Positions 4,290 to 13,919 of a DNA stretch of 24,942 nt are shown piece after piece. A program made the translations under genes and the position numbers. The notes under the pieces are model-generated. The model did no database searches. It saw only the letters and a program-made list of their open reading frames with translations, and was not told the DNA's origin. Origin of the DNA: a virus. Numbering within the stretch: the stretch's first letter is position 1; every line of letters starts with the position of its first letter. The stretch lies in IMG/VR virus record IMGVR_UViG_3300037063_000214. One strand, 5' to 3'.

Positions 4290-5276
4290 ATGGCAAATGC
4301 AAGCGCAAAAAAATTAGATTTTGACGATGAAGATGAATACGAGCCTCGTCCAGAAATAGGGTCAGATGACGATCAAGCTTATTATCATTGGTCCAAGCGA
4401 AATGGGGTATTTCGCCCTGTAGGTCACACTCAAGATACCGTACCAGCCGGTATTTATGAAATTGATAACGATAATAGCGGCTGGTTCCTATCCAAAGTAA
4501 AATTTCCATCAGATGCTCTACTCCGTTTACCTGGAATGCCTATTGATTTTATCCTTGATCAAATTGACACATTTTGGAAGCGTGAAGAATTATTCACCCA
4601 AACCAAACTCCTCCATAAGCGTGGTATTTTGATGTATGGACCCGCAGGCTGCGGTAAAACATCAATCATTAGACTGCTCTGTGACGATATTGTTAGACGT
4701 GATGGTATTGTGATCATGGTTACTAACTGCCGCTTGGCGGAAACGGCTCTTGGGGGCATTAGGCAAATAGAAACTCGTAGACCTATTCTTACAATTATTG
4801 AAGACATCGAAACCTTCATGGGTCCTGGTGATGAATCTTCATCCGCCAGAGCACTGTTGGCTCTGTTAGACGGAGAAACTCAAGTGGATCACATTGTTCA
4901 TTTGGCCACGAGTAATAAACCTGAACAATTGGAAGATCGTGTCGCTAAGCGTCCTGGGCGTTTTGATCTAGTAGTAAAATTAAGTCATCCGGTGGAAGAA
5001 GCCCGTAGAGCATACCTGTTAAATTTACTCCACGATCATGTAACCCCTGAAGAACTTCAGATTATGGTAGATGAAACTGAAGGTTTGGGATTGGCCCACT
5101 TACGCGAGTTGGTTGTAGCAAACTATTGCTTAGGCTTGGATCGTAAGCAAACATTAAAGCGTTTAAAGAAAAATTTCACAGGATCCTTAAAGGTCAAAAA
5201 GTCGCCCAGCGAGGGAATGGGATTTACCTTTGGTATCGATGAAGATGAAGATGAAAAATCATTAAAAAATGAGTAA
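4290..5276 (+). CDS. AAA ATPase of the classic AAA clade with a roughly 110-aa N-terminal domain.
   Basis: Walker A GPAGCGKTS. Walker B ILTIIEDIE. Second region of homology ATSNKPEQLEDRVAKRPGRFD, which is FtsH/CDC48-like. Confidence 0.85.
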   Translation: MANASAKKLDFDDEDEYEPRPEIGSDDDQAYYHWSKRNGVFRPVGHTQDTVPAGIYEIDNDNSGWFLSKVKFPSDALLRLPGMPIDFILDQIDTFWKREELFTQTKLLHKRGILMYGPAGCGKTSIIRLLCDDIVRRDGIVIMVTNCRLAETALGGIRQIETRRPILTIIEDIETFMGPGDESSSARALLALLDGETQVDHIVHLATSNKPEQLEDRVAKRPGRFDLVVKLSHPVEEARRAYLLNLLHDHVTPEELQIMVDETEGLGLAHLRELVVANYCLGLDRKQTLKRLKKNFTGSLKVKKSPSEGMGFTFGIDEDEDEKSLKNE

Positions 5277-5278
5277 AT

Positions 5279-6343
5279 ATGCCTGATGAAATTGAACTAC
5301 CTAAAAACGAATTCGACATACTACAGGATCGTATGCAAGCCTCTGAAGTGAACCGTAGAATACTTGGGGCCAATCCAGCAAGCGAGATGAGAAAAGTAGC
5401 ATCCGTGGATGGTAGTACACTTCTTTCATCCATGACAAAAAATCAATGGGCTGTATTACCGAATGATTCATTCACAGCCATTGGTACTACGGTTTCTCAT
5501 TTACCTCCAGCGATTTATACTTTATCGTCCGATGGGGGCGCGATATTTTTCCATAAAACTAAAGTTCTTACTGATAATTTAATTGATCTGGATGATAGCG
5601 CGGCTTTGCGAATCATTGCCGGAATTGAGAAATTTTGGGAATCTAAATCCAAATTTGATCGTTTTGGTATTCTCTTCAAGCGCGGCATTCTTATGTGGGG
5701 ACCGGCGGGGTCTGGAAAAACTGCCACAGTTAACATGTTGATGAATGATTTGGTGGGGCGCGGTGGAATGGTTGTAATTGTGCAATTCCCAGGTCTTGCG
5801 ATTGGGGGACTTCATGAACTTCGACGCATTGAACCGGAGCGTCCAATTATTGTAGTATTAGAGGACATCGAAGAAATGATACAAAATTTCGGAGAGCACG
5901 GATTGCTAAGTCTGCTTGACGGAGAGCACCAAGTTTCTAATGTTGTTGTACTGGCTACCACAAATTACCCAGAGCTTCTTGGCGAACGTATTATCAATCG
6001 ACCAAGCCGTTTTGATGAAGTTATTTTAGTAGATATGCCTTCCAAGAATGCACGATATCGGTATCTCAAGCACATATTAAAAGACACGGTACCAGAAGTA
6101 GAACTCCGGCAGTGGGTTATAGCAACCGACAAGCTATCCATCGCCCATTTACGAGAGCTTATTGTTGCTACTCAATGCTTGGATCGCCCATATGCCGAAG
6201 TTGTAGATCGTTTGAGGCGTATGAAAATTCGCCCGAATAGCGAGAAACGCGATAAAGAAGTTCCAGGCTTTTCAAATGTGGGCATGATAATTCCCGGGAA
6301 TTTTTCAAAGGAATGTGGGGGTTCAAGTACATCAAGTAGATAA
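5279..6343 (+). CDS. Second AAA ATPase, a paralogue of the upstream gene. Classic AAA clade.
   Basis: Walker A GPAGSGKTA. Walker B IIVVLEDIEE. SRH ATTNYPELLGERIINRPSRFD. It starts 3 nt after the upstream stop, so the two are translationally coupled. Confidence 0.85.
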   Translation: MPDEIELPKNEFDILQDRMQASEVNRRILGANPASEMRKVASVDGSTLLSSMTKNQWAVLPNDSFTAIGTTVSHLPPAIYTLSSDGGAIFFHKTKVLTDNLIDLDDSAALRIIAGIEKFWESKSKFDRFGILFKRGILMWGPAGSGKTATVNMLMNDLVGRGGMVVIVQFPGLAIGGLHELRRIEPERPIIVVLEDIEEMIQNFGEHGLLSLLDGEHQVSNVVVLATTNYPELLGERIINRPSRFDEVILVDMPSKNARYRYLKHILKDTVPEVELRQWVIATDKLSIAHLRELIVATQCLDRPYAEVVDRLRRMKIRPNSEKRDKEVPGFSNVGMIIPGNFSKECGGSSTSSR

Positions 6344-6399
6344 ATGTCAAGAGCAAATAGTTATGCACAATACTAATAAAGGCTGGTATAGGAAAAAAT

Positions 6400-7542
6400 A
6401 TGTCACATTATAGTGTTTTAGTTATCGGTGAAAACGTAGAAGAACAATTAGCCCCCTTTCATGAATTTGAATGTACCGGGGATGACAATGAGTATGTGCA
6501 AGATGTAGATGATACAGAAGAAGCCAGGGAATCTTATAAAGCCGATAAAACAACCATGTATAAAGATCCAGATGGTAACTTACACAGTCCTTGGACAAAA
6601 GAAGGACACGCCAAATCTGAATTTTATCGAGACCCTACACCAAAAGAAGAAAAAGAACGGGAAGAAACGGGATATTCTAACCTATCTTGTACATCTCAAG
6701 ACTGGGGTGACGGTAGGGGATATAGAGACAGAATTAAGTGTCTCCCTGAGGGCTGGCAAGAAGTAGAAGTGCTCACATCTTCTGTGGAAACTTTCGCTGA
6801 ATTCATTAAAGGTTATTACGGGCATGAACCTGTTGCTTTTGGTGAATCTCCTGACCTTGATGAAACCCACAAGTATGGATATGTGATACTTGACGAAAAA
6901 GGTGAAGTGGTACGAAGTATCAATCGGACCAACCCAAATAAAAAATGGGACTGGTGGACTCTCGGTGGTAGATGGAACGGCTTCTTTAAAACAAAAAAAG
7001 CAGGAGTAGGGGTAATGGGTGCGCCTGGTTTGCAATCGGCGCATGAGGATTATGAACCACCTACTGACGATCGTGCCGATGTTTGTACTAAGGATGATAT
7101 CGATATCGATGGGATGCGAGATGAAGCAGAACGCGAAGCCGGTAAGAGTTATGATTTGTATTCCAAAATAGTAGCTGGACTACCTCCGATTGTATCTTGG
7201 GAAGCTACAGTCGAAAAGCATAACAAAGATTACGCCGCTGCTAGAGAAGAATATAATGCACAACCGGCCGTATTAGTGCTTCGAAAGAACGAAGAGACTA
7301 CTTGGTATGACGCAGATGATTATTTGTGTTCTAGAGAGGTTTTTATTCAACGCTCACGGAATGCTGCTTTCTCTACTTTCGCTGTGGTTAAAGACGGTAA
7401 GTGGTACGAACGCGGGGAGATGGGTTGGTGGGGCGTGGTGAGGGATGAAAAAGACGCAGATGAATGGTATACTCAGTTTGCATCTCTTGTGGATAGTCTG
7501 CCTGGGGATACTGTAATGACTGTGGTAGATTGTCATATATAG
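6400..7542 (+). CDS. Highly acidic 380-aa hypothetical protein.
   Basis: Long clean ORF. It is D/E-rich and contains WDWWTLGGRWNGFF. No family was recognised. Confidence 0.7.
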   Translation: MSHYSVLVIGENVEEQLAPFHEFECTGDDNEYVQDVDDTEEARESYKADKTTMYKDPDGNLHSPWTKEGHAKSEFYRDPTPKEEKEREETGYSNLSCTSQDWGDGRGYRDRIKCLPEGWQEVEVLTSSVETFAEFIKGYYGHEPVAFGESPDLDETHKYGYVILDEKGEVVRSINRTNPNKKWDWWTLGGRWNGFFKTKKAGVGVMGAPGLQSAHEDYEPPTDDRADVCTKDDIDIDGMRDEAEREAGKSYDLYSKIVAGLPPIVSWEATVEKHNKDYAAAREEYNAQPAVLVLRKNEETTWYDADDYLCSREVFIQRSRNAAFSTFAVVKDGKWYERGEMGWWGVVRDEKDADEWYTQFASLVDSLPGDTVMTVVDCHI

Positions 7543-7657
7543 GAGCCGATAAACAGGCAGCAAGGTGGGGTTCGGTAGAACCGACAAAATGATGCGAGAA
7601 GCGGACAAGCACTTCATATGACGGCTGTAGTATCATAGGTACAAGGAATAACAGGTG

Positions 7658-8209
7658 ATGAAAATAGAGGATTCTGTGGAAACTGTGAATACATCAGCTA
7701 AAATTGATATCTTTAAATATGAATGGGAATTTTTGTCTAATTTTTATCCCTGTGAGATTGTTTGGGAAGGAATTACTTACGCTTCCACAGAGCACGCATA
7801 CCAAGCGGCTAAGACACTGGATATAGAGAAACGCCGGATGTTTGGATTAGAAGACAACCCTCGTTTAACAGCCAAAAAAGCAAAAGATATGGGAGCAAAT
7901 ATCAAGAAGAACGGAGAGCTGCGCTCCGATTGGCTCAAAGTCAATATCGGCATCATGCGGGAATTGTTGGTATTGAAATTTGAGAAAGAAGAGCTGAAAC
8001 AAAAATTATTGTCCACAGGCACCGCTTATTTGGAAGAAGGGAACTGGTGGGAAGACAATTTTTGGGGTGTTTGTTATGGGGGCACAGAAAAAGGGTTCCA
8101 TGGAATCAAATGCGGCAAATGGCCCCATGTCCCTTCGGGTGAAAATCATTTAGGTTTATTGCTTATGGCTATTAGGGCTACGTTTATTCCTAGAATACAG
8201 GTGGCATAA
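7658..8209 (+). CDS. NADAR-domain protein (YbiA/DUF1768-like). Predicted ADP-ribose-processing hydrolase.
   Basis: Signature IDIFKYEWEFLSNFYPCEIVWEGITYASTEHAYQAAK. aggtg sits immediately upstream of the ATG. Confidence 0.8.
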   Translation: MKIEDSVETVNTSAKIDIFKYEWEFLSNFYPCEIVWEGITYASTEHAYQAAKTLDIEKRRMFGLEDNPRLTAKKAKDMGANIKKNGELRSDWLKVNIGIMRELLVLKFEKEELKQKLLSTGTAYLEEGNWWEDNFWGVCYGGTEKGFHGIKCGKWPHVPSGENHLGLLLMAIRATFIPRIQVA

Positions 8210-8656: not shown

Positions 8657-8731
8657 CAGGGTATAGTGTTAATGGTAGCACCCTAGTTTCGGGAACTAGT
8701 AGTCTCAGATCATTCCTGAGTACCCTGACCA
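8657..8731 (+). tRNA. tRNA-Pro, anticodon CGG. It has Pro identity elements C1:G72 and A73. The T-loop is non-canonical, atcattc, with A54:U58 swapped.
   Basis: Acceptor cagggta/taccctg. D arm gtgt/gcac with GG in the loop. Anticodon stem ctagt/actag with loop ttCGGga. T stem ctcag/ctgag. ACCA. Confidence 0.6.
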
Positions 8732-8927: not shown

Positions 8928-9013
8928 CTAGGTGTCGGGTAGTTTGGTTTAGCCCACATGCCTTGGGCGCATGTCTCGAAAGAGAATCGCAGGTTCAAAT
9001 CCTGCCACCTAGA
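8928..9013 (+). tRNA. tRNA-Pro-like, anticodon TGG. C1:G72 and A73, but with a class-II-like 15-nt variable-arm hairpin (tctc-gaaa-gaga). No CCA is encoded.
   Basis: Acceptor ctaggtg/cacctag is perfect. D arm gggt/gccc. Anticodon stem catgc/gcatg with loop ctTGGgc. T arm gcagg-ttcaaat-cctgc is canonical. Confidence 0.5.
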
Positions 9014-9079
9014 CATTGGCGACTGTCAGCCGTTAGTAAGTCTGACTTAAAGGCGCATAGAGCGCAGTCGCACTTTTTT

Positions 9080-9340
9080 ATGAGTGTATTCGGCAATACA
9101 TGCGGCGTACGCATTTACAGAGGTCCATGCACCTGTAAAACTGCCTGCCCTAAATGTCAAATAGGCTGCTGGAATCCCGCTGCATATCGTAACCCATGGT
9201 TTGGGAAGCCTGGGCACCAGATTTATTGGTGGAGGGATCCATACAGCTACGCGGAATTTTTATGCGTAGAGCATTATGATGATGCTGTTAAAGACATTGA
9301 AGAATATGAAGAACTTTACCAAACGAAGGGTGTTTGCTGA
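9080..9340 (+). CDS. Cysteine-rich small protein containing CGVRIYRGPCTCKTACPKCQIGCW. The start is uncertain.
   Basis: The first part of the ORF-track ORF 8963-9340 overlaps the tRNA-Pro(TGG)-like gene, so the internal ATG at 9080 was taken. Confidence 0.4.
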   Translation: MSVFGNTCGVRIYRGPCTCKTACPKCQIGCWNPAAYRNPWFGKPGHQIYWWRDPYSYAEFLCVEHYDDAVKDIEEYEELYQTKGVC

Positions 9341-9341
9341 A

Positions 9342-9530
9342 ATGAAATATATTTATGAAGATCACGAGAAGCATACCACATGGGAATGTGAAGCCGAGGA
9401 TTTGCTTGCAGCGGATAAACTCTATGAAGCCGCTGGATGTAGGATGAGTGAAAACGCAAAAAGAAAAAAATCTATGCCTAATGATGTAGGGGCATGGTCA
9501 CCCGATTGGGCGTGTAACAAAAAGGCATAA
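9342..9530 (+). CDS. Hypothetical small protein.
   Basis: ATG lies 2 nt after the upstream stop. Confidence 0.4.
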   Translation: MKYIYEDHEKHTTWECEAEDLLAADKLYEAAGCRMSENAKRKKSMPNDVGAWSPDWACNKKA

Positions 9531-9558
9531 TAGGTTTATTCCAACTAATGGAGGAAGT

Positions 9559-10219
9559 ATGATTATCGAAATTAGAGCGGCTGAAGGCGGACAGGACGCA
9601 AAATTACTGGTCGAAGATCAAATGACCATCTACGCGAGGTTGGCGATACGGAGGGGTCTTTGAGTTTGATGTTACCGAACAACGCCCAGGTATAGCTATC
9701 CTGCGCATTACAGGGGCTACAGCGCCTCAAGTCTTCGCTAACGAGGCAGGAGGTCACCGTTTTCAGAGAATTCCTCCCACGGAGCGTAGCGGTAGAGTTC
9801 AAACCAGTACAATTACTGTGGCTGTTTTTGATGAACCGGAAGTTGCTGCTTTTGCCGTATCCCCAAATGATTTGGCATGGGAGACAATGCGCAGCGGGGG
9901 TAAGGGCGGTCAAAACGCCAATAAACTGGAAACAAAAATACGCTTAAAACATAAACCTACAGGATTAGTCGTGGTTTGCGAATCAGAACGTAGCCAAAAA
10001 AGAAATAAAGACACGGCCTTAGCTGTCCTTACAGCACGTTTGTACGCTGCTGATAAGGATAAAAAAGCTGAAGCTGCTACTACGGATAGGCGACAACAAA
10101 TAGGAACGGGACAACGAGGAGATAAACGCCGTACAATACGAGAAAAAGATGGAAAAGTCGTAGACCATATCACCGGTCAAAAATGGCGTTATTCTGATTA
10201 TGTAAAAGGCATTTGGTAA
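9559..10219 (+). CDS. Class-I release-factor homologue lacking domain 1, of the RF-H/PrfH type. The GGQ motif is present. Translation requires a +1 frameshift at CTT-TGA (9658-9663). Frame 1 covers 9559-9660 and frame 2 covers 9662-10219.
   Basis: Frame 1 reads MIIEIRAAEGGQDAKLLVEDQMTIYARLAIRRGL and then TGA. The +1 frame continues EFDVTEQRPG...GGHRFQRIPPTERSGRVQTSTITVAV...SGGKGGQNANKLETKIRLKHKPTGLVVVCESERSQKRNKDTALAVLTARL...DHITGQKW. Both parts align colinearly with RF1 domains 2-4. There is no start codon in the second frame between its upstream stop at 9623-9625 and the shift site. A GGAGGGG SD-like element sits just before CTT TGA G, as in prfB. Confidence 0.75.
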
Positions 10220-10222
10220 AAA

Positions 10223-10834
10223 ATGGAACAATATCCACATATCGAAGGCAGTACAAAGGCTCCTATAGGAGAACCGTGCATCGCTTTTTATAAGTACGAT
10301 GGTAGTAATCTGCGCTTCGAATGGAGCCCTAAAAAAGGCTGGCATAAGTTTGGCACCAGAAAAGAACTTTTTGACGCTCGCCATCCTTTGTGGTCTCAAG
10401 CCCTTCCCTTGTTTTTAGAGTTTGGAGATGAGATTGTAAAACGAGTGAAAGCATCGGATTGGCGATTGAAAGGTATCCAACGAATTACTGTTTTTTGTGA
10501 ATTCTTTGGACCTAGCAGTTTTGCCGGAATTCATGATGAAAAAGAGCCTAAAGAATTGCGTTTGATCGATGTATACCTTTTCAAAAAAGGTATGATGCCA
10601 GCGAAGCAATTTGTAGAAATTTTTGGAGATATGCCCCAGGCAGCACAGGTAATTTATCAGGGAAATTTGACTAAGCAATTCATAGATGATGTGCGCTTTG
10701 GGGCTTATTCTGTGAATGAGGGCGTGGTCGCTAAGGGCGCTGATTTTCGGGTAAAAATAAAAACTGCTGCTTACTTCAAAAAATTGAATGAACGGCTCCC
10801 AGAGTTAGCGAATGCCTTTGATTGTGAGTATTAG
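10223..10834 (+). CDS. Minimal ATP-dependent RNA ligase of the Rnl2 family. Adenylyltransferase core only, 203 aa.
   Basis: Motif I KYDGSN (KxxGxN). Motif III ITVFCEFFGPSSFAG (compare Rnl2 VFGEFAGPG). Motif IV EGVVAK. Motif V RVKIKT. It starts 4 nt after the release-factor stop. Confidence 0.75.
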   Translation: MEQYPHIEGSTKAPIGEPCIAFYKYDGSNLRFEWSPKKGWHKFGTRKELFDARHPLWSQALPLFLEFGDEIVKRVKASDWRLKGIQRITVFCEFFGPSSFAGIHDEKEPKELRLIDVYLFKKGMMPAKQFVEIFGDMPQAAQVIYQGNLTKQFIDDVRFGAYSVNEGVVAKGADFRVKIKTAAYFKKLNERLPELANAFDCEY

Positions 10835-10844
10835 ACTCTGTACG

Positions 10845-11110
10845 AGTTTGTGCTAATACGAGGTGCGGAGTTCCATAGATTTAGGCGGAACAAGACCTAA
10901 TTTCGGAACTCTACTGGCGACGGTCAGAGTTACCTCGTAGCACAATTTCCCAAACAGATACTTGTCTGGGAGAACTTGAGGACTCAGTGAGCCTCAGGTG
11001 GGGCATATTGGTGGACCCCTGTCCTTCGGGACTTAATCTGGCGGCCCAAGACGAGGAGTCAAGGGCTTAAAGAATCCTAGATTTTTAGTCTGGGAGCATC
11101 AAGCAGTATT
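10845..11110 (+). ncRNA. Structured non-coding region and candidate ncRNA. It has a long closing helix (gtgctaatacgaggt / acctcgtagcac), nested hairpins, and a gtcc-ttcg-ggac tetraloop hairpin.
   Basis: No ORF. Multiple compensatory stems were read by eye. Function unknown. Confidence 0.3.
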
Positions 11111-11172
11111 TTTTCAATTGGTGTATTCACCGTTTGCAGATTTGTACCGCTGGGGTTAATAAGGACGGTTGG

Positions 11173-11189
11173 TATGGAAAGTATAGGGA
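11173..11189 (+). repeat. Direct repeat atggaaagtataggga(c). A second copy lies at 11299-11316. The pair flanks tRNA-Met.
   Basis: A 16-nt exact match occurs 126 bp downstream. The second copy forms the hairpin tatag-ggaa-ctata just upstream of tnpB. Confidence 0.6.
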
Positions 11190-11211
11190 CTTGGTAAAAT
11201 TTTTTATTTAC

Positions 11212-11290
11212 GCCAGTGTAGCATAGTCCGGCCTAATGCGCTTCGCTCATAACGAAGAGATCGGTGGTTCAAATCCACCCGCTGGTACCA
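11212..11290 (+). tRNA. tRNA-Met (elongator type), or tRNA-Ile2 if lysidinylated. Anticodon CAT. CCA is encoded.
   Basis: Acceptor gccagtg/cgctggt with two G-U pairs. D arm gcat/atgc. Anticodon stem cttcg/cgaag with loop ctCATaa. T arm ggtgg-ttcaaat-ccacc. ACCA. Confidence 0.7.
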
Positions 11291-11349
11291 AAATTTTAAT
11301 GGAAAGTATAGGGAACTATATAGTTAACTCCCCCGGCTAGAACATAACA

Positions 11350-12477
11350 ATGCTGAGAACTTTTCAATGTCGGTTGTATCCAAACGCGACGCAGAGACAC
11401 GCGCTGGAGTTCGTCTTGCGTGACAACGCGGAGACGTACAACGCGGCTCTTGCAGAGCGCCGAGATGCATGGAAGTTGGAGCGCAAGGCGATCACCTATC
11501 GAATGCAACAGGACGAACTAACAGAACTACGCCGTGATGAACAATTTGCAAGAGTCGCCTGCGACATTCAACGTGATCCCTTGAGAAGGGTTGACCGAGC
11601 ATTCCAAGCGTTCTTTCGGCGTTGTAAAGCAGGCCAGAAGCCAGGCTTTCCTCGTTTTCGCTCTCATCTGCGCTACGACTCTTTTGGATTCAGTCTCCCA
11701 GTCGTGAATAGTGAACGTCTGAGGATTCCGAATGTGGGGCAGATCAAACTGCGCGGAGGCCGCAGCATTGCAGGTAAGGCGAAGTGTTGCACGGTCAAGC
11801 GAGACGGCAACCGTTGGACGGCTTCAGTCGTGTGCGACATTGGTCCGGCACCAGGGAAGCGTATGGTAACAAATGCTGTCGGAATAGATATGGGCCTGAC
11901 GACGCTCGCCACGCTGTCGGACGGGACGGAGATTGAGAACCCACGCTGGACCCGACAGCACGAAGACCTGATTGCAGCCGCGAATCGCCTACTGGCACGG
12001 AAGCATAAACGTTCGAAGAACCGCATCCGGGCGCGGGAAGCACTGCATCGCGCTCACCAGCGGGCCGCGAATGCCCGTCGCAACTATCTGCATCACGTTT
12101 CCAAATGGCTTGTGGGTAATTACGACCTGATCGCCCACGAAGCCTTAAACATTAAAGGCATGGCGCAAGGACATTTCGCCAAGTCGATTATGGATGCCGC
12201 ATGGAGCATTCTGCTGTCGCAAGTACGCTACAAGGCTGAGAGTGCCGGAGTGTACGCGATAGCGGTGAATCCACGCGGCACGTCACAAATGTGTTCGGGT
12301 TGCGGTCGAAACGTTCCGAAGAAACTGGCGCAGCGGGTGCATAGCTGTCCGCACTGCGGTCTAGTTCTGGGGCGTGACCACAATGCCGGACGGAACATTT
12401 TAGCGTTGGGGATCAACGCTGCGGGCGTAAGCCTTCAAAATCTACACACGACTCGGGTTAGGGAGTTATGTATATAA
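11350..12477 (+). CDS. tnpB: TnpB (IS200/IS605 family OrfB), an RNA-guided RuvC-like nuclease.
   Basis: N-terminal MLRTFQCRLYPNATQRHALE. RuvC-I GIDMGL. RuvC-II LIAHEALNIKGM. C-terminal zinc finger CSGCG...CPHCG followed by RDHNAGRNI. It is markedly more GC-rich than the flanking DNA. Confidence 0.9.
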   Translation: MLRTFQCRLYPNATQRHALEFVLRDNAETYNAALAERRDAWKLERKAITYRMQQDELTELRRDEQFARVACDIQRDPLRRVDRAFQAFFRRCKAGQKPGFPRFRSHLRYDSFGFSLPVVNSERLRIPNVGQIKLRGGRSIAGKAKCCTVKRDGNRWTASVVCDIGPAPGKRMVTNAVGIDMGLTTLATLSDGTEIENPRWTRQHEDLIAAANRLLARKHKRSKNRIRAREALHRAHQRAANARRNYLHHVSKWLVGNYDLIAHEALNIKGMAQGHFAKSIMDAAWSILLSQVRYKAESAGVYAIAVNPRGTSQMCSGCGRNVPKKLAQRVHSCPHCGLVLGRDHNAGRNILALGINAAGVSLQNLHTTRVRELCI

Positions 12478-12489
12478 GTCCCAAATATC

Positions 12490-12743: not shown

Positions 12744-12821
12744 GCGGGGATTAAGCTACGGTGCGCTTGGATGTCTCATAAGCATTCCTCTTAGGTGGTT
12801 CAACTCCACCCTCCGCTACCA
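12744..12821 (+). pseudogene. Degenerate tRNA-like element with a CAT anticodon arm. It is possibly a remnant or duplicate of tRNA-Met.
   Basis: D arm aagc/gctt. Anticodon stem gatgt/gcatt with loop ctCATaa. T arm ggtgg-ttcaact-ccacc. It ends in tACCA, but the acceptor stem pairs poorly. Confidence 0.35.
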
Positions 12822-13509: not shown

Positions 13510-13919
13510 AGTTTCAAAGAGACATAATCCCGTCGCCCTGCTTGCTCGACTAAGGCGGTGTGGGGTGTTGAGACCGGTAAGTTTGACGACGATCCGGGTA
13601 CGAAGTCCCTATCCTTTCTGATAGGGTGGTTGCGGGTGTTCTAGTCCACGCAATGACTAGCTAGCATTTTAGAAGTGATTTTTGTGGCGGGCGCACACGC
13701 AGTGCGTAAGCGGAGGCTGCTGTACAATCTATAGTAGGGAGCCTCACTAATCCGACTGGCGTACGACGGTCGGGATATTGATGAGATGTATCGGAGCGGA
13801 AGCCCACAAAATATTTTCGTTGCAGCAATACCGCAACAAAAGGAAACTTAACCTTTATAGGATCGCGTTCCTACTGGGGTGGATGACGAGTTTCCTTTCC
13901 ATTTCTACCGTAACAGGTA

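Follow-up and report, generated by a model that had tools for sequence, protein, structure and literature searches.

The 24,942-nt stretch of viral DNA analyzed here (IMG/VR record IMGVR_UViG_3300037063_000214, called the window below) contains a gene for a release factor (RF) homolog directly followed by a gene for an RNA ligase homolog, both within an island of proline and methionine tRNA genes (Table I). The arrangement raises the question of whether the two proteins form a dedicated unit that repairs ribosomes or are encoded by separate genes that share a location. A previous interpretation of the letters alone (the sequence-only reading) argued for the former, describing an RF-H-like protein and a minimal Rnl2-family ligase assembled on the same logic as the bacterial PrfH-RtcB2 pair. 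Both genes are real, their coordinates were given correctly, and a dedicated ribosome-repair pair is possible. With about even probability, we read them instead as two separate translation-support genes that share a tRNA island and that, in this lineage, are polycistronic and probably translationally coupled.

The RF gene is divided between two reading frames. The sequence-only reading treated 9559-10219 as one RF gene and did not mention that the product needs a +1 shift from the first frame into the second. The joined product of 219 residues aligns to residues 89-298 of T. maritima RF1 (E = 2e-46) with no interruption at the frame junction, the frame-0 part aligning to RF1 domain 2 (PCRF profile; T. 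maritima RF1 residues 89-122). Pfam reports the RF-1 domain and, of the 194 positions of PCRF, only the C-terminal half from 103 onward. Since the protein begins where RF1 domain 2 begins, it lacks domain 1, which is dispensable for codon-dependent release (PMC1586002). An open reading frame (ORF) upstream (9276-9530) was considered as a separately encoded domain 1; it has no Pfam or PHROG match.

Against NCBIfam, the RF scores 205 and 198 bits with the prfA (RF1) models, 134 bits with prfB (RF2) and 82.6 bits with prfH, for which the cut-off is 166.65 bits (TIGR03072). The 205 bits lie below the RF1 equivalog cut-off of 400 bits, and the protein is not a full-length four-domain RF1. Matches in the PDB are to RF1 (2e-46), RF2 (about 1e-26), and PrfH of C. 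gingivalis (2.5e-14) and E. coli (5e-10), the last spanning the GGQ domain only. The RF1 decoding elements are kept (Q of QRIPP, the PPT tripeptide and T of QTST), together with GGQ. Across 30 family members, residues Q35, P38, P39, T48 and S49 do not vary, and the PxT-type tripeptide is PPT in the family and PPN in one relative. In PrfH, the decoding head is replaced by an rRNA-recognition domain (PMC9304027). Because RF1 models score far higher and the RF1 decoding elements are retained, the protein is classed on its sequence as an RF1-type mini-RF lacking domain 1, and the label "RF-H-like" does not hold. Bacterial RF1 (prfA) aligns end to end with the mini-RF over domains 2-4 and has in common with it the Q (of QRVP), the PxT tripeptide (PPT), the T (of xTST) and GGQ. 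The mini-RF differs in having neither domain 1 nor the extreme C-terminal helix, in a Gln that replaces, in its clade, the His next to the conserved Thr of bacterial RF1, and in the tip of helix alpha5 (AAEGGQD versus GTGGEE).

The two frames are joined at a cassette (GGAGGGGT CTT TGA G; the junction reads CGG AGG GGT CTT TGA G) with the architecture of the prfB +1 site: a Shine-Dalgarno (SD)-like GGAGG lies 3 nt before CUU, an in-frame stop follows, and the homologous ORF continues in +1. The cassette sequence GAGGGGTCTTTGAG is identical in four relatives (L004, L005, L008 and L024), and loci in which the RF is linked to the ligase hold 18 distinct site sequences (14 with TGA, three with TAG and one with TAA). 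In a survey anchored on the RF (80 IMG/VR viral loci, L115-L194, with RFs 41-68% identical), 65 loci have CTT and an adjoining stop at the equivalent point of the protein, in most cases preceded by GGAGG; 53 of these loci use TGA, 10 TAG and two TAA. Eight of the 80 are in frame, and full-length in-frame family members exist as proteins, as is also known for prfB. A sequencing or assembly error was rejected as the source of the frame break, which dozens of independent contigs share together with the conserved cassette.

The site differs from that of prfB in its host gene, which is RF1-type, and also in its position and its stops. It lies at codon 34 in domain 2, whereas the prfB site lies at about codon 25 in domain 1, and it uses all three stops, whereas TAG was never seen in 8,164 prfB motifs (PMC12421855). 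The same survey, which covered more than 12,000 bacterial genomes, reports the device from prfB only, with no convincing case in prfA (PMC12421855). A literature search of limited coverage returned nothing that links phage release factors with frameshifting or with an RNA ligase, and a frameshift cassette in an RF1-type gene, placed in domain 2 rather than domain 1, has not previously been described in the literature searched. The mini-RF with its relocated frameshift is a more surprising element than the ligase.

If the mini-RF is made through this frameshift, its output should rise when termination at the cassette stop is slow. The stops do not point clearly to autoregulation: an RF1-like product is expected to read UAA and UAG, yet UGA is the stop in the 53 loci noted above. 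A UGA site would report the activity of RF2, and not the RF1-like activity of the product itself, unless the mini-RF also reads UGA. The phage encodes a tRNA-Leu(GAG), the decoder of the slippery CUU, at 2006-2090, and L139 and L143 likewise have a tRNA-Leu(GAG) near their RF; this tRNA could tune frameshift efficiency, or its presence could be coincidence. Reassignment of a stop codon was also considered as the reason for a phage to encode an RF, and was rejected. TAA, TGA and TAG each terminate genes of the window (12, five and four, respectively) and long ORFs translate well under the standard code, so that nothing points to recoding.

The ligase gene starts directly after the RF gene, as the sequence-only reading had it, with a gap of 3 nt (RF stop ending at 10219, ATG at 10223); no SD precedes the ATG. 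All the motifs that had been named (KYDGSN, VFCEFFGPSSFAG, EGVVAK and KIK) are present in the product, and they align with those of Rnl2-type nucleotidyltransferases. In an alignment of 118 diverse homologs, D26, G27, E93 and D116 are invariant, and K24, N29, R31, R46, G96, E166, G167, K171, K178 and K180 are conserved in at least 90%. These positions match the catalytic set of covalent nucleotidyltransferases, and such conservation of the motifs is judged from the alignment to be far beyond chance.

Taken alone, the window protein has no Pfam or NCBIfam match even at an E value of 10, phmmer against the PDB also returns nothing, and its only match is to PHROG 548, "RNA ligase" (E = 5.6e-5). 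Of its 118-member family, 83 match PF09414 (RNA_ligase) at E values of 0.1 or lower, the best being 4.6e-14; the family profile run against PDB sequences gives marginal matches only, with a spurious one, Rsp5, on top. An AlphaFold2 model from the single sequence was discarded (predicted local distance difference test, pLDDT, of 44), and the model built from the 118-member alignment reached a pLDDT of 96. Comparison of this model with known structures places RNA ligases above DNA ligases (11.8 or less) and capping enzymes (about 7), and Foldseek returns the same ranking. An hhalign alignment to T4 Rnl2 brings motifs I, III and IIIa into register (K24-K35, R46-R55, E93-E99 and D116-D120 are paired), and by motif reading E166, K171, K178 and K180 match E204, K209, K225 and K227. 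The alignment covers the N-terminal domain of T4 Rnl2 only; the phage protein ends 23 residues past motif V, and the Rnl2-specific C-terminal domain needed for nick sealing is absent. Since motif conservation, the PF09414 matches of the family, structure comparison and hhalign agree, "Rnl2-type RNA ligase" is a sound prediction at the level of the fold and the catalytic domain. The description as a minimal Rnl2-family enzyme is borne out to that extent, the window protein itself falling below the PF09414 threshold.

T4 Rnl2 and T. brucei REL1 (Rnl2 family) and Naegleria NgrRnl (Rnl5), all in PF09414, have the same catalytic motif set as the phage ligase, with which they share 12-17% sequence identity. 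Unlike them, it consists of 203 residues only, with neither the C-terminal nick-sensing domain of Rnl2 nor the N-terminal oligonucleotide-binding (OB) domain of Rnl5. Its family is large (778 matches in 90% clusters, 688 clusters at 50% identity), nearly all members have 195-225 residues, and none carries a precomputed domain. Close family members are nearly absent from 185,579 species genomes, where the three matches all lie on contigs of metagenome-assembled genomes and are likely phage-derived. The ligase is accordingly assigned, by homology, to a distinct and almost phage-only subfamily of bare domains of about 200 residues. ORF354 of Xanthomonas phage XacN1 is a 32%-identical homolog; three Rnl2-family paralogs have been reported in that phage (PMC7824862). 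In a 642-kb phage (L002, LR756502, 3989-6249), a HisRS/HisZ-like class II synthetase fragment comes after a homolog of the ligase, and behind the fragment stands a second, canonical-looking RNA ligase with the motifs KIDGAN and EGIVIK.

The two genes keep company in some relatives and not in others. The ligase directly follows the RF, either 3 nt behind it or overlapping it by 1 nt, in the window, in the near-identical contigs L031 and L032, and in L033/34 and L024/25/73. About 16 further distinct relatives have the order ligase, tRNA-Pro(CGG), RF, with gaps of 139-1016 nt. In about 23 informative relatives of similar identity (59-70%), no RF lies within 1.5-7 kb of the ligase. Of 46 informative close relatives of the ligase, about 21 (about 45%) thus have the RF adjoining it, in one gene order or the other, and a Pro...Met tRNA array surrounds the pair in relatives as it does in the window. 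A crude neighbor-joining tree puts the RF-linked ligases essentially in one clade, with both gene orders interleaved. Distant ligase lineages (34-45% identity) are without an RF, with the single exception of L139/141/143, in which the ligase lies about 200-450 nt ahead of the RF in a Leu/Ser/Arg tRNA island (identities to the window proteins of 46-49% for the RF and 36-38% for the ligase). When the RF is taken as the anchor, a ligase is found within 5 kb in only seven of the 80 loci and not in the other 73. The island of L113/114 (NADAR...tRNA-Pro x4...RF...tRNA-Met) has no ligase, the genes are about 124 kb apart on a 405-kb contig (IMGVR_UViG_3300050821_002957), and in the LR75xxxx huge-phage records and Lak phages they are hundreds of kb apart. 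Xanthomonas phage XacN1 has a ligase homolog only, and no RF homolog. The expected synteny is therefore found in one clade and one deep lineage, and is facultative. With the genes syntenic in relatives and the ligase motifs alignable, neither of the observations by which the sequence-only reading could fall was made.

Genes for tRNAs are the commoner companions of the ligase. They lie within about 1.5 kb of it in about 24 of 33 distinct contexts (our own count), including contexts without an RF and with other tRNA sets (Thr/Gln/Ile, Glu/Gln/His and Leu). The island of the main clade holds almost only tRNAs plus the RF and the ligase, so that under local shuffling these two would be close by default. 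Clustering of the neighbors in 109 ligase loci yields only three recurrent families (the RF, a 170-residue protein and NADAR), most clusters being without domain annotation; a recurrent kinase or phosphatase was not found across these loci, which have single cases only. These are a calcineurin-like metallophosphoesterase 0.9 kb downstream of the ligase in L017 (7475-8035) and RlaP in L022/L023.

In the reading we favor, each gene would support translation in its own way. The mini-RF would bind the A site, read the stop codon via its RF1-like elements and hydrolyze peptidyl-tRNA through GGQ, without RF3 or contacts with the L11 stalk. For its synthesis, tRNA-Leu would have to slip by +1 from CUU to UUU at CUU-UGA, as at the prfB site, aided by the SD-like GGAGG. 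In the ligase, Lys24 would be adenylylated and AMP passed to a 5'-phosphate RNA end, upon which attack by a 3'-OH would seal the break. Nicked, structured RNAs are its most likely substrates, with tRNA anticodon loops broken by ribonucleases of the host or of competitors as the leading candidate, and ligation would follow end healing by enzymes encoded elsewhere. The ligase probably reseals broken tRNA. Such a role fits the position of RlaP (PF10127), an RNA-ligase-associated repair nucleotidyltransferase, 0.8 kb downstream of the ligase in L022/L023 (L022 8372-9214). The Rnl2 ligases of jumbo phages have likewise been interpreted as tRNA repair enzymes (PMC7824862). T4 Pnkp/Rnl1 and the repair sets of jumbo phages resemble the present case in combining a phage ATP-dependent RNA ligase with a tRNA-rich genome; compared with T4 Pnkp/Rnl1, the window has no kinase/phosphatase partner, and the ligase is a bare catalytic domain whose gene is embedded in tRNA arrays. 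Independence of the two genes is argued by the RF without a ligase in the same island, by the mostly ligase-free RF loci and the many RF-free ligase loci, and by the wide separation of the genes in some phages.

Several observations pull against such independence. The RF is the most frequent protein-coding neighbor of the ligase (31 of 109 loci), and where it does not adjoin it may still be close (1.7 kb away in L017 and 2.3 kb in L108). Adjacency has survived at least one change of gene order in the main clade and recurs in the deeply diverged lineage with its different tRNA island, and in the RF-ligase order the 3-nt spacing or 1-nt overlap suggests co-translation. An end-healing partner, which the proposed ligase reaction would require, was found neither among the scanned ORFs of the window nor recurrently near the pair. 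Recurrent linkage of this kind fits a functional link, which the favored reading treats as incidental. A loose rescue-plus-repair partnership would supply one: host nucleases would cut tRNAs on or off the ribosome, the mini-RF would free ribosomes and nascent chains, and the ligase would reseal healed tRNA halves, in one pathway without an obligate complex. We hold this to be plausible, but less probable than independence. Two gene orders in two or three different tRNA islands and the tight coupling of one of them argue for it, and so do precedents. It resembles the idea of PTH2 acting with an RNA ligase, as ribosome rescue in jumbo phages has been proposed to combine RNA ligases with the hydrolysis of peptidyl-tRNA (PMC7824862), and an RF-type hydrolase in an RNA-repair context is established for PrfH (PMC6514570). 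However, the mini-RF retains RF1-type stop-reading residues and nothing suggests action at sense codons or empty A sites, the ligase is missing from most RF loci and the RF from many ligase loci, and the clustering of neighbors, with most clusters unannotated, links no healing enzyme to the pair.

Closer to the sequence-only reading is a dedicated two-gene module convergent with PrfH-RtcB2, in which the RF would sense a ribosome with cut rRNA, release the peptide and split the ribosome, and the ligase would reseal the rRNA. The resemblance is real, and the precedent is experimentally solid (PMC9304027, PMC9223846): both systems place an RF homolog without domain 1 beside a genuine RNA ligase, tightly coupled here in one gene order, and the adjacency is conserved in one clade and one deep lineage. 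The proteins themselves fit poorly. The RF matches RF1 far better than PrfH in both the bit scores and the PDB E values given above, and it keeps the codon-reading head that PrfH has replaced. Colicin-E3-type cuts leave 2',3'-cyclic phosphate and 5'-OH ends. RtcB uses 3'-P/5'-OH ends, whereas the class to which the phage ligase is assigned is ATP-dependent and needs 3'-OH/5'-P, and would therefore depend on a kinase and a phosphatase, neither of which is found among the scanned window ORFs or recurs nearby. The PrfH-RtcB2 pairing is also invariant and belongs to a bacterial defense operon, whereas the present one is facultative and belongs to a phage tRNA island. RF1 ancestry, the retained decoding head, unsuited end chemistry, the missing healing enzyme and the facultative pairing together weaken the analogy, and we regard such a module as quite unlikely. 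Repair of colicin-E3-type cuts is not supported, given the end chemistry, nor is a dedicated pair, given the tRNA arrays as commoner ligase neighbors, the RF without a ligase in L113/114 and the 124 kb between the genes on the 405-kb contig. A related proposal, also unlikely, is that the frameshift-gated mini-RF1 and the minimal ligase make up a phage counter-defense unit, an ATP-ligase version convergent with PrfH-RtcB2. Ribosomes jammed by tRNA- or rRNA-cleaving host nucleases would be rescued and the damaged RNA then resealed, and the RF-ligase order would couple translation of the ligase to a frameshift by which failing termination is sensed.

The least probable of the alternatives, which we consider very unlikely, is that the 203-residue protein is no RNA-repair ligase, and performs only self-adenylylation or adenylylation of other molecules, seals DNA nicks or is a decayed remnant. 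It is true that it has neither the Rnl2 C-terminal, the Rnl5 N-terminal OB nor the Rnl1 C-terminal domain for substrate binding, that it misses the Pfam and NCBIfam thresholds, and that the isolated N-domain of T4 Rnl2 is not known to carry out overall nick sealing. Decay is unlikely, however, because the family comprises 688 clusters at 50% identity with uniform size and strongly kept catalytic motifs. Both fold searches place RNA ligases ahead of DNA ligases and capping enzymes, and the context is one of tRNA genes and RlaP, not of DNA replication.

The roles of the many translation genes in huge phages have mostly been guessed so far. A large, almost phage-only subfamily of RNA-ligase domains of about 200 residues, found preferentially inside tRNA arrays, is defined, which provides a concrete candidate for phage tRNA repair and a minimal enzyme for ligase biochemistry. 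The mini-RFs constitute a widespread phage family of domain-1-less RF1-type factors with a prfB-like +1 frameshift at a new position, with UGA, UAG or UAA as the stop, whereas frameshifting had been tied to RF2 autoregulation and reported absent from prfA. It can now be tested whether the frameshift site senses the activity of another release factor, that is, the termination capacity of the host, and what a phage gains from a terminator of its own that is independent of RF3. If the facultative linkage of ligase and RF is functional, it would represent a second, independently assembled rescue-and-repair system.

Table I. Coordinates of the RF and ligase genes, their elements and the surrounding features in the window
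Feature	Position	Strand	Remarks
RF gene and RNA ligase gene	9559-10834	+	Two genes inside the Pro/Met tRNA island
Shine-Dalgarno GGAGG	9550-9554	+	4 nt upstream of RF ATG 9559; read from the sequence
RF, frame-0 part	9559-9663	+	34 codons (MIIEIRAAEGGQDAKLLVEDQMTIYARLAIRRGL); in-frame TGA 9661-9663
+1 frameshift cassette	9650-9664	+	SD-like GGAGG 9650-9654, spacer GGT, slippery CTT 9658-9660, TGA 9661-9663, G
RF, +1-frame part	9662-10219	+	185 codons plus TAA 10217-10219; RF1-type domains 2-4, no domain 1
PPT motif (PxT-like)	9773-9781	+	In the RF +1-frame part
Catalytic GGQ	9905-9913	+	Residues 116-118, in the RF +1-frame part
RNA-ligase nucleotidyltransferase domain	10223-10834	+	203 residues; ATG 10223, TAG 10832-10834; no C-terminal or OB domain
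Ligase motif I, KYDGSN	10292-10309	+	Residues 24-29; K24
Ligase motif III, VFCEFFGPSSFAG	10490-10528	+	Residues 90-102
Ligase motif IIIa, LIDV	10562-10573	+	
Ligase motif IV, EGVVAK	10718-10735	+	Residues 166-171
Ligase motif V, KIK	10754-10762	+	Residues 178-180
tRNA-Pro(CGG)	8657-8731	+	ARAGORN, Rfam; upstream part of the island holding RF and ligase
tRNA-Pro(UGG)	8928-9014	+	87 nt; ARAGORN, Rfam; upstream part of the same island
tRNA-Met(CAU)	11212-11290	+	ARAGORN, Rfam; downstream part of the island
Second tRNA-Met	12744-12817		ARAGORN, Rfam
Structured segment, 225 nt	10825-11049	+	Overlaps the last ligase codons; RNA fold z-score -4.1
TnpB-only insertion	11312-12482	+	ORF 11350-12477; Pfam OrfB_IS605 and Cas12f1-like_TNB; between the two tRNA-Met genes

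The window as a whole contains nine tRNA genes (ARAGORN, Rfam) and, by Pfam and PHROG scans, a family-A DNA polymerase, a portal-like protein, methyltransferases, two AAA ATPases, a NADAR protein and a TnpB insertion. In agreement with the sequence-only reading, which saw no end-healing enzyme in the window, Pfam finds no kinase or phosphatase among the scanned ORFs (about 20 ORFs of at least 58 residues), and none of these ORFs matches RtcB. A scan for promoters and terminators gave fewer hits than shuffled sequence. The contigs that carry relatives come from peat and soil metagenomes and IMG/VR and measure 200-460 kb, with one of 894 kb, and both the RF and the ligase have distant homologs in Lak phages and in curated huge phages (LR7565xx and LR7452xx); the source is therefore a huge soil or peat phage of the 300-460 kb class. 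At the DNA level, 9000-12600 matches none of the 50,697 phage records searched, and by that measure no cultured or deposited phage is a close relative.

Upstream of the Pro/Met island, a block at 4290-8209 is conserved in L004, L005, L008 and L113. It comprises a response-regulator-like gene, the two AAA ATPases and the NADAR-domain protein (7655-8209), the last of which points to ADP-ribose chemistry. Within the island, about 11 extra nt in the variable region give tRNA-Pro(UGG) an unusual length of 87-88 nt, which is kept in the relative L120 (2992-3079).

The DNA downstream of the ligase differs even between near-identical contigs. The 225-nt structured segment is present in the window and L031 and absent from L032 (blastn; flanking blocks 99.97-100% identical); nothing in Rfam matches it, and it occurs nowhere else in the loci compared. 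In the spacer at 10835-11211, Rfam at both gathering and E-value thresholds found tRNAs only. The TnpB element is bounded by 22-nt terminal inverted repeats (11311-11332 and 12461-12482) and is not part of the RF/ligase unit. Its insertion or replacement is recent, since the near-identical L031 and L032 carry a 361-nt segment in its place. A perfect 16-nt direct repeat, ATGGAAAGTATAGGGA, flanks the first tRNA-Met gene (11174-11189 and 11299-11314), the second copy abutting the left end of the TnpB element. Relative to the window, the near-identical contigs also contain insertions of 1350 nt at 7541 (L032 1969-3318) and 630 nt at ~13561-13567 (L031 5214-5843), and these two sites appear to be hot spots of mobile DNA.

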